The notes beneath the pieces were generated by a model. It ran no database searches. It was given only the letters and a program-made list of their open reading frames with translations, and had not been told where the DNA came from. DNA of 64,000 nucleotides from Longimicrobiales bacterium (lineage in GTDB: Bacteria; Gemmatimonadota; Gemmatimonadetes; Longimicrobiales; Gaopeijiaceae): assembly GCA_965218295.1 (NCBI GenBank), contig CBDCKN010000003.1, positions 192,001 through 256,000 on the forward strand. Direction: 5' to 3'. This document shows positions 2,204-6,247 of this stretch, piece after piece. Both the position numbers and the translations under genes were made by a program. Position 1 is the stretch's first letter. Every line of letters starts with the position of its first letter.

Positions 2204-2422
2204 AAGCCCGCTGGGGCATCCAACCGTTGGCGTGCCATCAACTCCAGGCGCGGCGGCCCCGTCTACGGGTCTCCCGCGTGAACCCCTTTGTCCTGCGTCG
2301 GAACCGTTGGCCCGGTGTGGCATCTGCGATAGATTCGTATGGGGATTATATACCTATTTACTTTTTTGGCCCGATGCGTTATATTCTATATAAGGTAAAT
2401 GATGATACCGTAAGGGGTTACG

Positions 2423-3376
2423 ATGACACGACGCAAGGGACCGGGCAAGGCGTACCGGGAGGGAATAACCCTCCTCGAACTGGCGGAGATATTCCCGACC
2501 GAGGAGTCGGCCGTCCACTGGTTCGAGCGCGCGGTATGGGGCGAGGAGCGATGCTGCGGACACTGCGGAGGACTAGATACCCGCCAGACCAAGAGCGGAA
2601 AACCACAGCCCTACTTCTGTCGTGACTGTCATCAATACTTCAGCCTCCGCACCGGCACGGTGATGGCACACTCGAAGCTGCCCATCCGCACCTGGGTCTA
2701 CGCGATCTACCTGAACTGCACGAGCCTCAAGAGCGTTTCGTCGATGAAGCTGCATCGCGACCTGGGGATCACACAAAAGACGGCGTGGTTCATGCAGCAG
2801 CGCATCCGCGAGGCGTTCAAGGCCGAGGGACCGATGATCTTTATCGGACCCATCGAGGTGGATGAGAGCTATTTCGGTGGCAAGAAGAATCGCAAGACCT
2901 CGGGCCGTGGCCCGGTGGGTAAGACGGCCGTCGTCGGGGCGAAGGACCGGGCCACGGGACAGGTGACCGCACGGGTGGTCGACCGCACGGATAAAGAGAC
3001 GCTACAGAACTTCGTCGAGACCATCACGCTCAGGGACGGCACGAAGGTCTATACCGACGGCGCGATGGCCTACCGCGGACTGCCCAATCACGAGTGGGTC
3101 GATCACGGCGCCGGTGAGTATGTCGATGGTCAGGTTCACACAAATGGCATCGAGAGCTTCTGGTCGATGCTCAAGCGGGCGTACAAGGGGACGTTCCACA
3201 AGCTGTCCGCTAAGCACCTCCAGAGGTACGTCAACGAGTTTGCAGGCCGGCACAACATCCGCGAGATGGATACGATTCGACAGATGGAAGAGGTCGTCGT
3301 CCGCATGGTCGGTCGGCGGCTCATGTATCGCGACTTGACCGCTGACAACGGCCTGTCGTCAGGAGCGCGTAGCTGA
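2423..3376 (+). CDS. IS1595-family (ISXO2-like) DDE transposase
   Basis: Zn ribbon CGHC...CRDC, HTH, EVDESYFGG, VYTDG, HTNGIESFWSMLKR. Confidence 0.95.
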   Translation: MTRRKGPGKAYREGITLLELAEIFPTEESAVHWFERAVWGEERCCGHCGGLDTRQTKSGKPQPYFCRDCHQYFSLRTGTVMAHSKLPIRTWVYAIYLNCTSLKSVSSMKLHRDLGITQKTAWFMQQRIREAFKAEGPMIFIGPIEVDESYFGGKKNRKTSGRGPVGKTAVVGAKDRATGQVTARVVDRTDKETLQNFVETITLRDGTKVYTDGAMAYRGLPNHEWVDHGAGEYVDGQVHTNGIESFWSMLKRAYKGTFHKLSAKHLQRYVNEFAGRHNIREMDTIRQMEEVVVRMVGRRLMYRDLTADNGLSSGARS

Positions 3377-3598
3377 GTCCTTCACCCAGTGGCTAACCGG
3401 CCCGATGAAGACCGAACCATCAACGGTTAGCCTGTTCCAGGAGAGACAGGGTTGCTGACGTAATTAGGGTATCAGCCTCAGCGTGCCGCTTTTTCCAGCG
3501 GAGCGTGAAGTACCGCTCAACCAATTCCTGAGAGGGTGGGAAGGTATTACTATTCATATGGAAAGCTCATTCATTGTTGTGGGTGGATGTTTTCCATC

Positions 3599-3631
3599 GC
3601 GCCCGATCTGACCTCATATCAGATTGGGCGC
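3599..3631. terminator. 13-bp stem hairpin between the convergent transposase and passenger genes; possible terminator
   Basis: GCGCCCGATCTGA-cctcata-TCAGATTGGGCGC (one G:T pair); no clear U-tract. Confidence 0.45.
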
Positions 3632-3675
3632 AACCTTGTTAGTACACGACCCTCCTCGTCGTTGTTTCAGTAATA

Positions 3676-3858
3676 TCATGAAGATATCTTCACAAGAACG
3701 ATCTCGGCTTCGTGGCAGCCACGGGTCAGCGTGATGGCCTCGACGCAGGCGTCCTTGCTGGGGTAGGCAGGAGGAGGCCCCATGGCGATGACCTGTTCCT
3801 CATGGTACAGATTCCAGTGCCACTTGCCACCTTCATTTTTCTTGATCGCAAAGTGCAT
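3676..3858 (-). CDS. YegP/DUF1508-like small protein (IS1595 passenger)
   Basis: F.I.K...GKWHWNL....VIA....YPSKDACVEAI pattern; GGAGG upstream of the ATG. Confidence 0.7.
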   Translation of the reverse strand: MHFAIKKNEGGKWHWNLYHEEQVIAMGPPPAYPSKDACVEAITLTRGCHEAEIVLVKISS

Positions 3859-4063
3859 ATCTTTAGCCTCCGCAGGTAAGAGCTACCAACAGGACGAGCG
3901 CTCCAGAGATGAGGTAGATCTGGATGATGGGCATCTCGTTTATCGCATGGGCTATCTCCTCACCCTTCTTCTGTGCTCTAGTGTCAAGGAGCTCTATGTC
4001 GATCACCGGCTCCTGTTTTTCTTTCAACTCTGTAGGCTGACCGGCCCCCAATAGTGGTACCAC

Positions 4064-4975
4064 CTACTGTGTTAGTCCAACGGCCTCCTGCAGCCTGGGG
4101 TGAGGGCCGTTAAGCTTGGGCAGATTCAAGAAGAAGGGATCGGGCCGTAGCGCTTCGGGGGCCGGTGGTCGGTAGCGGAGCGAGCTGTGGGGTCGGATGG
4201 TGTTGTACTCCCGCCGCCACTGTTCGATGAGCACTTTCGCCTCCTCCAACGAGTAGAAGATCTCCCGCTTCAGGACTTCTTCGCCCAGCGTCCCGTTGAA
4301 GCTTTCGTTGTAGCCATTCTCCCACGGGCTACCCGGCTCGATATACAGCGTCTTCACCTCGACCCGCTCGAGCCACTCACGAACCACCTTGGCCGTGAAC
4401 TCCGGACCGTTGTCGGACCGGAGATTGGCCGGTGGACCATGCTCGACAAAGAGCTCACTGAGCGTCTGCAACACATCGTCCGCCCTGAGCCTTCGGGCCA
4501 CTACGATCGCCAGACACTCCCGGCTGTATTCATCCAACACCGTCAGCATCTTCAGCGGCCGACCGTCGTGCGTCCGATCCGCCACGAAGTCATACGCCCA
4601 GACGTGATGGCGGTACAAGGGTCGAAGCCGGATGCATGAGCCGTCCGTAAACCAGAGCCGGCCCCGTTTGGGCTGTTTCTTGGGCACTTTCAGGCCCTCC
4701 TCTCTCCAGATCCGCTCCACCCGCTTGTGGTTCACCACCCAGCCCTCCGCCCTCAACATCCCTGTAACCATCCGGTACCCGTAGCGACCGAACCGACCCG
4801 CCACCTTGACCACGTCCGCTCGTAGCGCCGCTTCATCAGCCCCTCTCTTCCGACTCCTCCGTTGTGTCGATCGAGCCTGGCCCAACACCTCGCACGCTCG
4901 CCTCTCGCTCACCCCGAGCCGCTGCTGGACCCGCACCACACAGCGCCTCCGCCGCTCGGGGCTTAGAAGTTTCCC
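4064..4975 (-). CDS. IS3 transposase OrfB (rve integrase core), expressed by -1 frameshift
   Basis: YGYR, NHKRVERIWREEGL, WAYDF, RSDNGPEF, PWENGYNESFN. Confidence 0.93.
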   Translation of the reverse strand, partial: GKLLSPERRRRCVVRVQQRLGVSERRACEVLGQARSTQRRSRKRGADEAALRADVVKVAGRFGRYGYRMVTGMLRAEGWVVNHKRVERIWREEGLKVPKKQPKRGRLWFTDGSCIRLRPLYRHHVWAYDFVADRTHDGRPLKMLTVLDEYSRECLAIVVARRLRADDVLQTLSELFVEHGPPANLRSDNGPEFTAKVVREWLERVEVKTLYIEPGSPWENGYNESFNGTLGEEVLKREIFYSLEEAKVLIEQWRREYNTIRPHSSLRYRPPAPEALRPDPFFLNLPKLNGPHPRLQEAVGLTQ

Positions 4976-5244
4976 TTTGACGCTTCCTTCAGGATCATCT
5001 TGTCCACCGTCAGATCGGCCACCGCCCGCTTCAGTCGATGGTTCTCCTTCTCGAGCTCCTTCAGACGCTTCGCCTGACTCGTCTTCATCCCCCCGTACTC
5101 CCTCCGCCACCGGTAGTACGTCTGCTCGCTCACCCCTAGATCCCGGATCACCTCTTTCAGCGACTTCCCGTTGGCGAGCCCCACTTCCGCCCGCCGTAGC
5201 CCGTTGATGATCTGCGCTGCCGTGTAGTTCTTCCGTGCTGCCAT
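4963..5244 (-). CDS. IS3 transposase OrfA (HTH)
   Basis: LGVSEQTYYRWRREYGGM...LKELEKENHRLKR; G GGA AAC slippery site just before the stop. Confidence 0.92.
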   Translation of the reverse strand: MAARKNYTAAQIINGLRRAEVGLANGKSLKEVIRDLGVSEQTYYRWRREYGGMKTSQAKRLKELEKENHRLKRAVADLTVDKMILKEASKGNF

Positions 5245-5880
5245 CTCGACCTCCTCCCGGTCTCGACCCGCCCAGATTCTAACACTGGACCTGGTCTCGT
5301 TTCAGGGGGCTAGGTCATAGGAACAGGCACCACATAGAATGGGTGTTCTGCCTCGTTGCCGATCTCTGCTTGCACGAAGGTGTTCAATCGGTCGGCGAGC
5401 TCGGTGGCGACCGCACGGGTAAATGGCCAGGGCTCGCCGACGTTAGCTGGCCCATGCCCTGGCACATCGAGTGGAAAATCTATCGTCGTGAAGCCGATGA
5501 CCGTCTCAAGTGACTCATCTACACGGTGAGCGATAAGCCACCAACTCTGGTCATCATCGGGTTTGATCTTCTGCGGAAACCGCAGCAAGTTTCCCATCAC
5601 GCTCGCATGATAAGGACACAGTGGTGCCGGGCCGTTTGCCAGTCACCACATAGGGAACGTGCGGAAAGACTCCTACCTGTTCACCCGCCGGTCGGGAGCT
5701 ACCCTCTCGGATTTTGTGCTTGGGCTCTTGTATTCGGTAGGTAACCCGACGTGAGAGTCCCCTACGTAATAACTGGCAGGCTCAACGTATAACTTGTTGG
5801 ACCCCTTGACAAGGCCGTTTCCAGGGGTTACGCAGACGGGTCGTATAAATTATTTTTAACAGGTGATATTAGCGTAGAGG

Positions 5881-6054
5881 ATGAGGATGTCCGAGAAGAA
5901 AATGAGCAAGAAAGAGAGCGAGCAGCGTCGCGACGACTGGGCAGACGCCCCGTCGCGCAATCCTGACTTCAAGGGGGCGACACCGATCGATGTGGCCCGA
6001 GCGTTGTGGAATCATCGCCCGAAGAAGTCGTCACAGAAGGATCCGAAAAAGTAA
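5881..6054 (+). CDS. 57-aa basic hypothetical protein (IS1595 passenger)
   Basis: MRMSEKKMSKKESEQRRDDWADAPSRNPDFKGATPIDVARALWNHRPKKSSQKDPKK*; GAGG upstream of the ATGs; below the ORF-track length cut-off. Confidence 0.55.
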   Translation: MRMSEKKMSKKESEQRRDDWADAPSRNPDFKGATPIDVARALWNHRPKKSSQKDPKK

Positions 6055-6068
6055 AAATGAGAACTACA

Positions 6069-6154
6069 CGGAAGGCGGGAGAGTCGAACCCCCGGTGCTT
6101 TCGACACCGCCCTGGCTTTTGGGACCAGTTGGACCACCAATCGGGGCACCTTCC
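6069..6154 (-). ncRNA. tRNA-like RNA with long variable arm, CAA anticodon position and non-canonical cloverleaf
   Basis: GGAAGGTG/CGCCTTCC-G acceptor, CTGGT-CCCAAAA-GCCAG anticodon arm, CGGTG-TCGAAAG-CACCG variable arm, GGGG-TTCGACT-CTCC T arm; weak D stem; no CCA. Confidence 0.75.
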
Positions 6155-6247
6155 GTGTAGTCTCTACCCTTGTAGCAAGAGCCCGATTTCAATAGAAAGT
6201 AAATAGGTATATAAATCCCATTCGTATTCCCTCAAAAAGGAATGCAC

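Follow-up and report, generated by a model that had tools for sequence, protein, structure and literature searches.

What is a tRNA-like RNA doing inside a transposon? The stretch of DNA analyzed here (the window, 64,000 nucleotides from a Longimicrobiales bacterium) contains an IS1595 element that encodes, near its right end, an RNA with the outline of a tRNA, a leucine anticodon, and several serine-type features. We asked what kind of RNA this is and where it came from, whether related transposons carry comparable RNAs, and what such a cargo might do. The features are collected in Table 1; positions are those of the window unless another genome or locus is named.

Table 1. Features of the IS1595 element and of the RNA gene that it carries
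Feature	Position	Strand	Basis or remark
Left TSD copy, 8 bp, ATTCGTAT	2333..2340	.	Present once where G001 and G002 have the site empty
Left IR	2341..2364	+	Starts GGGGATTAT; 22/24 match to right IR
DDE transposase, 317 aa, intact frame	2423..3376	+	PF12762, E 6.6e-35; PF12760 below cut-off
Passenger ORF, 60 aa, DUF1508	3676..3858	-	PF07411, 23.1 bits against a cut-off of 22
Nested IS3-family element (orfA/orfB)	about 4038..5317	-	PF01527, PF13276, PF00665
Structured RNA-like element, upstream of passenger ORF	5618..5762	-	In 14/64 elements; no Rfam family
Basic 57-aa ORF, motif [YF]KGA[TS]P..VA.AL, convergent with the tRNA	5881..6054	+	Common IS1595 passenger
3' trailer pairing with the leader, then a T-rich tract, putatively terminator-like	6045..6068	-	Sequence, fold
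(8/4) allo-tRNA, Ser-type body, anticodon CAA at 6119-6121, G73 at 6069	6069..6154	-	Model R1, 60 bits; family alignment
5' leader extending the acceptor helix, 8 contiguous pairs + 4	6155..6164	-	Fold, sequence
Weak extended -10-like site, putative start near 6164	6169..6177	-	Sequence, by eye
Right IR	6196..6219	-	22/24 match to left IR
Right TSD copy, 8 bp, ATTCGTAT	6220..6227	.	Identical to left copy

Structure, family, and origin of the RNA

The body of the RNA is 86 nt long, and the unit including its flanks is 107 nt. A first-pass annotation had described a cloverleaf with an 8-bp acceptor, G73, a 4-bp T stem, a variable (V) arm, and a CCCAAAA anticodon loop, and the sequence confirms each of these parts. 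All pairs of the acceptor (GGAAGGTG/CGCCTTCC) form; the T stem closes a TTCGACT loop and brings the acceptor-plus-T branch to 12 bp; and the V stem of 5 bp, in the register of the family described below, belongs to an arm that passes straight into the T stem. The anticodon stem has 5 bp, and the CAA in its loop reads the leucine codon UUG. Throughout the acceptor, T, V, and anticodon stems, every position is paired. A perfect acceptor and T-arm match arose in 1 of 1,000 shuffles of positions 5318-6219 (902 bases). G73, the long V arm, and the pairs G1:C72, G2:C71, and A3:U70 are serine-type features. The gene does not encode CCA, and this is not damage: such absence is normal in this host, since only 1 of its 48 tRNA genes encodes CCA and a PF01743 nucleotidyltransferase is present.

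The D region is 18 nt long, the same as in viral relatives, and its D stem is poor, as first described. Two family pairs that 40 of the 42 sequences in the alignment retain are replaced by C.C mismatches in the window RNA. An alternative D hairpin of 4 bp, capped by a UGGU tetraloop and set behind a 6-nt linker, has a computed probability of 0.04. The flanks had been said to extend the acceptor helix by about 7 pairs; the extension is real, but it consists of 8 contiguous pairs including C-1:G73, then a bulge, then 4 more. Extension of the acceptor by more than 2 flanking pairs occurs in none of the 48 host tRNAs. The 107-nt unit folds with a z score of -5.24 (0 of 200 shuffles were equally good), and the 86-nt body without flanks folds more weakly (z = -1.99). 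By computation, the minimum-energy fold is not the cloverleaf, which lies 6.4 kcal/mol above it; both the D arm and the anticodon arm are mispaired in the computed fold, and the anticodon stem reaches a pairing probability of 0.05 against a family median of 0.66, with 9 of 50 family members also below 0.1. The broken D stem and the 8-pair lock between leader and trailer may represent damage.

Standard tRNA scans miss this gene. As the first-pass annotation anticipated, calls are low scoring or pseudo: ARAGORN reports nothing at default settings and, when relaxed, a pseudo call of 94 points (a threshold of 80 gives pure noise), and the best Rfam match, tRNA-Sec at 32.7 bits (E = 0.0013), falls short of the gathering score of 47. 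The likeness to tRNA-Sec (RF01852) consists of the UGGU-capped D hairpin, the long V arm, and G73. However, the window RNA is 8/4 rather than 8/5, and we rejected a tRNA-Sec identity on the lack of a UCA anticodon, the lack of a 13-bp branch, and the low Rfam score. The host's own tRNA-Sec is present on C1.

A viral pattern search for 8/4 tRNAs matched at least 121 loci, and the matches listed, together with two further loci, comprise 104 distinct RNAs. Among these listed relatives, 98 of 104 have serine anticodons by automatic call (the non-Ser call of L304 is doubtful), the best identity to the window RNA is 75%, and 11 have C33. The loop CCCGAAA, with the serine anticodon CGA and C33, is found in L338, L302, L261, and L247 and is one base away from the CCCAAAA of the window. 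On sequence grounds, C33 of the window RNA is not damage.

In an alignment of 41 viral relatives and the window RNA (42 sequences), 98.9% of cells are paired as the 8/4 structure requires. For the window sequence alone, the 8/4 and 7/5 registers lie within 0.3 kcal/mol of each other, and the first-pass annotation had allowed for 7/5; the family disfavors it. Adjoining the T stem, the V-stem pair of columns 48-66 is kept in 42 of 42 sequences with 17 double changes, and the extra pair of the 7/5 register (columns 66-82) fails in 31 of 42. Family covariation thus argues for 8/4; the eighth acceptor pair, imposed by the search pattern, is no evidence for the register. Model R1, built from 50 phage 8/4 tRNA-Ser sequences with the window sequence left out, scores the window RNA at 60 bits and the best host tRNA at 46.8. 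Applied to 100 IS loci, R1 gave 11 matches, the best at 29.4 bits and none near the score of the window RNA. The family and the R1 model support the proposed allo-tRNA-type fold and serine identity elements.

An exact-pattern search found no close homologs of the window RNA in viral or metagenome contigs; searches of plasmids found none, those of phage gave one weak match, and those of 60 relatives gave only two short matches of 20-25 nt. No diverged homolog of the exact RNA was found in these searches. A decayed host tRNA is excluded, as the nearest relatives among the matches listed are phage 8/4 tRNA-Ser. Near-identity to a host tRNA-Leu or tRNA-Ser, which would have pointed to a captured pseudogene, is likewise absent: BLAST found no host tRNA match in its own genome, and the host Leu and Ser genes are 7/5 and of different sequence. 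By fold and family, we identify the window RNA as an (8/4) allo-tRNA(CAA) that a single change in the anticodon likely produced from a tRNA-Ser(CGA) of phage type.

The (8/4) allo-tRNAs, including phage tRNA-Ser, are already published as a class (Mukai et al. 2017, PMC5389517; review, PMC7609411), and the features held in common with the window RNA are the 12-bp branch, the long V arm, G73, and a non-Ser anticodon. Compared by eye with the supplement of PMC5389517, the window acceptor is identical to that of an (8/4) tRNA-Ser (row 668), C33 loops appear in rows 291, 640, and 661, and rows 727-731 are five (8/4) CAA G73 allo-tRNAs. Relative to the (8/4) allo-tRNAs of that work, the window RNA differs in having a D hairpin of just 4 bp behind its linker and a leader and trailer that lock the acceptor end. 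The host has two near-identical tRNA-Leu(CAA) genes (G000, C13 36379-36463 and C14 51086-51170), cognate competitors of the cargo RNA, and a 17-gene tRNA array (G000, C9 278187-280522) that is seen too in the relative G071 (L351).

The IS1595 element and its other passengers

The allo-tRNA gene lies inside an IS1595 element of 3,879 bp (positions 2341-6219), which shares with its family a PF12762 transposase, terminal IRs of about 24 bp, an 8-bp TSD, and small passenger ORFs; its tRNA-gene cargo sets it apart from known IS1595 elements. The matching IRs, the TSD, and a site that is empty in both congeners (G001 and G002) establish the gene as true cargo of a TSD-bounded element, as first proposed, and 41 bp separate the 5' end of the tRNA from the inner edge of the right IR (previously put at about 40 bp). 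Its convergence with the 57-aa ORF also held. The nearest named relatives of the transposase are mostly from Gemmatimonadota and other metagenome-assembled genomes, which makes a Gemmatimonadota host likely. The element presumably belongs to the ISNwi1-type passenger-carrying IS1595 group. We take its left IR to be ISNwi1-type by consensus (ISfinder; Siguier et al. 2009).

The nested IS3 element likely splits one passenger ORF (3863-4032 and 5318-5600); in a contig of run X1, position 4032 is joined to 5318 and the nested IS3 is absent. The RNA region is near-unchanged in DNA runs X1, X3, and X4, which may include the source sample and so are not independent. A low-depth X1 contig (2.15) leads from 6181 back to 6063 via 19 other letters, a junction hinting that a related element may have the RNA unit repeated in tandem. 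Positions 6038-6201 are covered in 0 of 4 RNA runs, whose contigs are all at very low depth. A promoter scan of the window returned 0 sites, and a terminator scan did not flag the trailer and T-rich tract at 6045-6068. Of 11 upstream regions scored for promoters, only that of L362 gave a good match.

The 57-aa ORF has a family of 271 cluster representatives at E ≤ 0.001. No Pfam family was found for the window protein or for the motif in 16 relatives, and a search for its function gave no atlas match and no names among 13 listed cluster members. Members of the family are present in 29 of 64 IS1595 elements, often ending at the right IR. We rejected a fixed link between the tRNA and this ORF, since 23 of the 29 ORF-containing elements are tRNA free; conversely, 5 of 11 tRNA carriers lack the ORF, and in 5 of 11 the two genes are convergent. 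The element at 5618-5762 represents a multi-stem family found upstream of a passenger ORF in all three elements of this genome, with relatives in L059, L060, L118, L123, L126, L129, L137, L010, and L164. Compensatory changes occur in 7 of its 27 consensus pairs (10 sequences), and an Rfam search of the element and its relatives gave no match. It is possibly an undescribed RNA family.

Irregular tRNAs in IS1595 and IS1-family elements

From 178 transposase matches, 80 were delimited by IRs and an 8/8 TSD and resolved into 64 distinct elements; the 98 undelimited matches were left out of the count. tRNA-like genes occur in 11 of the 64 elements, three of which are in this genome, or in 9 of 62 without the query element and L362, which was found through its RNA. 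The predicted recurrence in related IS1595 elements with varied anticodons is therefore borne out, but a fixed position at the right IR is not: in most carriers the RNA lies elsewhere, often just after the transposase. By inspection, none of the 11 carriers' tRNAs is plain canonical. For comparison, 446 kb of flanks contained 7 canonical tRNAs at ARAGORN scores of at least 100, plus 2 of a neighboring element. In one element dropped from the set (L168), an odd tRNA follows the transposase at a distance of 100 bp. On a quick tree of 59 rows, the 10 carriers are dispersed, with 7 changes, and L129, the closest relative of the C15 element described next, has no tRNA.

The cargo is diverse. This genome contains two further IS1595-borne genes, both derived from tRNA-Cys and with enlarged anticodon loops of 8 and 9 nt (G000 C13 71136-71210, or L059:1338-1410, and G000 C15 473929-474002, or L060:2031-2103); ARAGORN labels the C15 gene an ordinary tRNA-Gly. 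The two are possible frameshift suppressors. The congener G002 has one IS1595-borne tRNA-Cys body with an 8-nt loop, and across the carriers such 8- or 9-nt loops are found in L059, L060, L118, and L123. L119 and L120 (two copies with different duplications) and L201 each pair a Ser body with anticodon UUA and a long-arm G73 RNA with UAA; L122 and L123 have Arg-like bodies with odd loops; and L362 has an 8/4 allo-tRNA(UAU) and a Leu-type body with GGA. Small G3.U70 RNAs whose D arm is reduced or odd, with anticodon UUA, CUA, or UGC, occur at L121:5939-6007 (oriented copy), L123:6222-6290, and L211:2828-2910. Those of L121 and L123 are 69 nt long, with anticodons UUA and CUA, and an Rfam search of the two gave no match; that of L211 has an irregular D region. 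The leader in L118 contains, some 50 bases upstream of 4084, the anticodon arm of its own cargo tRNA for a second time. The median leader/trailer duplex energy is -13.6 kcal/mol for 15 cargo RNAs against -10.2 kcal/mol for 48 host tRNAs, in samples that are not independent.

Sister copies permit a comparison of rates. A comparison of L119 with L201 gives 6 differences in 175 tRNA sites, 71 in 298 third codon positions, and 87 in 697 sites of the other cargo, which, as far as substitution counts can tell, shows purifying selection on these cargo tRNAs. For the Cys-type copies of C13 and G002, the count is 17 differences in 73 sites against 44 in 313 third positions; despite this faster change, both copies keep their stems and 8-nt loop. 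Compensatory changes are seen in sister cargo tRNAs by inspection.

Searching from the RNA side, we found the 8/4 pattern in 4 of 401 genomes of the host's own phylum (control, 0) and in 4 of 301 genomes around G564 (control, 1). Anticodon and body are mismatched in 7 of the 8 pattern matches from these 702 genome scans, and 4 of those 7 lie inside bounded elements, namely, the window IS1595 element and IS1-family elements in G154, G686, and G673 (the last with a TSD of 7/8). The mismatched allo-tRNA of G370 lies at a contig end, directly beside an IS1-family transposase, and those of G201 and G762 have no bounding element, with an IS1595 transposase about 4.5 kb away in G762. G668 has a cognate Ser copy within a tRNA array. 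Two further allo-type RNAs came from 41 genomes (G573, also CAA, and G594); in the DNA examined, no IS1595 or IS1-family transposase is near the allo-tRNAs of G201, G573, or G594. Among the viral matches listed, a transposase match lies in the surrounding DNA examined for 2 of 6 non-Ser RNAs and 2 of 98 Ser RNAs, 27 of the RNAs having short flanks only; in the two Ser cases, it is more than 2 kb away and undelimited. Altogether, IS1595 and IS1-family elements repeatedly carry irregular tRNAs, mostly with mismatched body and anticodon.

Further irregular tRNAs, among them an Arg-like body with anticodon GCU and a tRNA-like RNA with an Asp anticodon, flank IS1-family transposases in L343 (14079-14241 and 12915-13011) and L042 (3904-3990).

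The authors of PMC5389517 suspected a transposable-element link from one pseudogene. The accessible part of that paper describes only this pseudogene, which overlaps a transposon-related ORF, and proximity to toxin-antitoxin genes, whereas the window RNA resides in a delimited and recently inserted IS1595 element. A literature search in which subscription journals were barely covered found no report of tRNA cargo in IS1595 or IS1 elements. The three different cargo tRNAs in one genome and the IS1-family carriers are new, and so are the likely one-base origin from a phage 8/4 tRNA-Ser and a carriage count with a denominator. The biological role of allo-tRNAs has been a question since 2017, and this locus and its relatives make deletion and reporter tests possible: the elements are bounded and recently moved, with known ends, empty sites, and sister copies with and without the RNA, and one genome offers three different irregular tRNAs. 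They also suggest a route by which codon-reassigning tRNAs could spread. These prospects are tempered by the prior publication of the RNA class and by a real chance that the window copy is inactive.

Possible roles of the cargo tRNA

SerRS recognizes G73 and the long arm of its substrates and ignores the anticodon. The reading that we favor, tentatively and with somewhat less than even confidence, is that the allo-tRNA is IS1595 cargo with a mistranslating payload that would insert serine at UUG and limit growth and that is likely muted in this copy. A transcript started at the right end would be a precursor of about 107-120 nt, in which pairing of leader and trailer from C-1:G73 outward would slow trimming by RNase P and 3' nucleases. 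The nucleotidyltransferase (PF01743) encoded by the host would add CCA, SerRS would charge the tRNA with serine by way of G73 and the long arm, and the charged tRNA is predicted to place serine at UUG leucine codons. The element would gain a conditional toxin of the addiction or abortive-infection type, and muting of the window copy would result from the broken D stem and locked acceptor end. There is precedent for such activity in PMC5389517: Ser-identity allo-tRNAs with Leu anticodons inserted serine at Leu codons and killed E. coli on induction. Against a payload, six species of allo-tRNA(UAU) in the same paper were inactive as amber suppressors, two of which nevertheless killed cells; an antidote gene is not evident; of the 64 elements, 53 are mobile although no tRNA was detected in them; and UUG makes up 7.6% of host Leu codons (long ORFs), for which two host tRNA-Leu(CAA) genes compete. 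Moreover, the 8- and 9-nt loops of L059, L060, L118, and L123 fit plain mistranslation poorly.

A much wider role can be imagined, although we regard it as doubtful. IS1595 and IS1-family transposons could be main vehicles of allo-tRNAs, recruiting phage or host tRNA genes and switching the anticodon or enlarging the loop. A locked precursor, freed under stress or infection, would then scramble translation, making an RNA-only toxin or defense module by which missense, nonsense, and frameshift suppressors would pass from one bacterium to another.

Alternatively, the window RNA may be a relic, in which a once-active mistranslating allo-tRNA was picked up and silenced and this copy is inert, cells surviving only with broken or locked copies. 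The lost D-stem pairs, the unfavorable energy of the cloverleaf, and a contiguous lock unmatched among the host tRNAs all agree with inertness, as do the invasion of the element by IS3 and the patchy carriage on the quick tree, with L129 devoid of a tRNA. However, the other four stems are intact, the UGGU hairpin would be a D arm typical of allo- and Sec-type RNAs, and the sister cargo tRNAs are under purifying selection with compensatory changes. We consider this possible but, on balance, rather unlikely.

Less probable still is a non-decoding decoy or structural RNA, one of the roles listed at first pass. Its tRNA shape would engage or divert synthetases, anticodon nucleases, or enzymes of RNA processing, or it would serve as a processing or termination signal between convergent transcripts, leaving the anticodon free to vary. 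In favor of this reading, bodies are intact while anticodon arms vary, enlarged loops included, and the diverged C13 and G002 copies keep their stems and loop; the stronger leader/trailer duplexes of the cargo, though from nonindependent samples, fit as well, and some irregular tRNAs are charged without translating, according to PMC5389517. Yet several cargo tRNAs look like clean suppressors, with ARAGORN scores of 129.7 for the Ser body with UUA and 121.2 for the Leu-type body with GGA, and one would expect a decoy to mimic the anticodon loops of the host rather than stop-codon or mismatched ones.

The first-pass annotation also named an integrase landing site and an antisense partner of the 57-aa ORF, both of which we judge very improbable. 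tRNA genes are common integration sites, and the convergence of tRNA and ORF in nearly half of the carriers would suit either role, but the tRNA lies clear of the coding sequence, and the frequent occurrence of each gene without the other leaves the antisense proposal weak. In the loci inspected, though only incidentally, no integration of an element into a cargo tRNA was noticed.

Hardly credible, finally, is a private code in which the element's own genes would be read correctly through its tRNA (TTG as serine or, in sister elements, stop read-through): several sisters do carry UUA or CUA anticodons, but no in-frame TAA or TAG occurs in the transposase genes of L119, L201, and L121, all of which carry UUA, no conserved-Ser column of the transposase uses TTG, and recoding of the window transposase was rejected because its sole TTG falls in a column that is leucine in 54 of 58 relatives.
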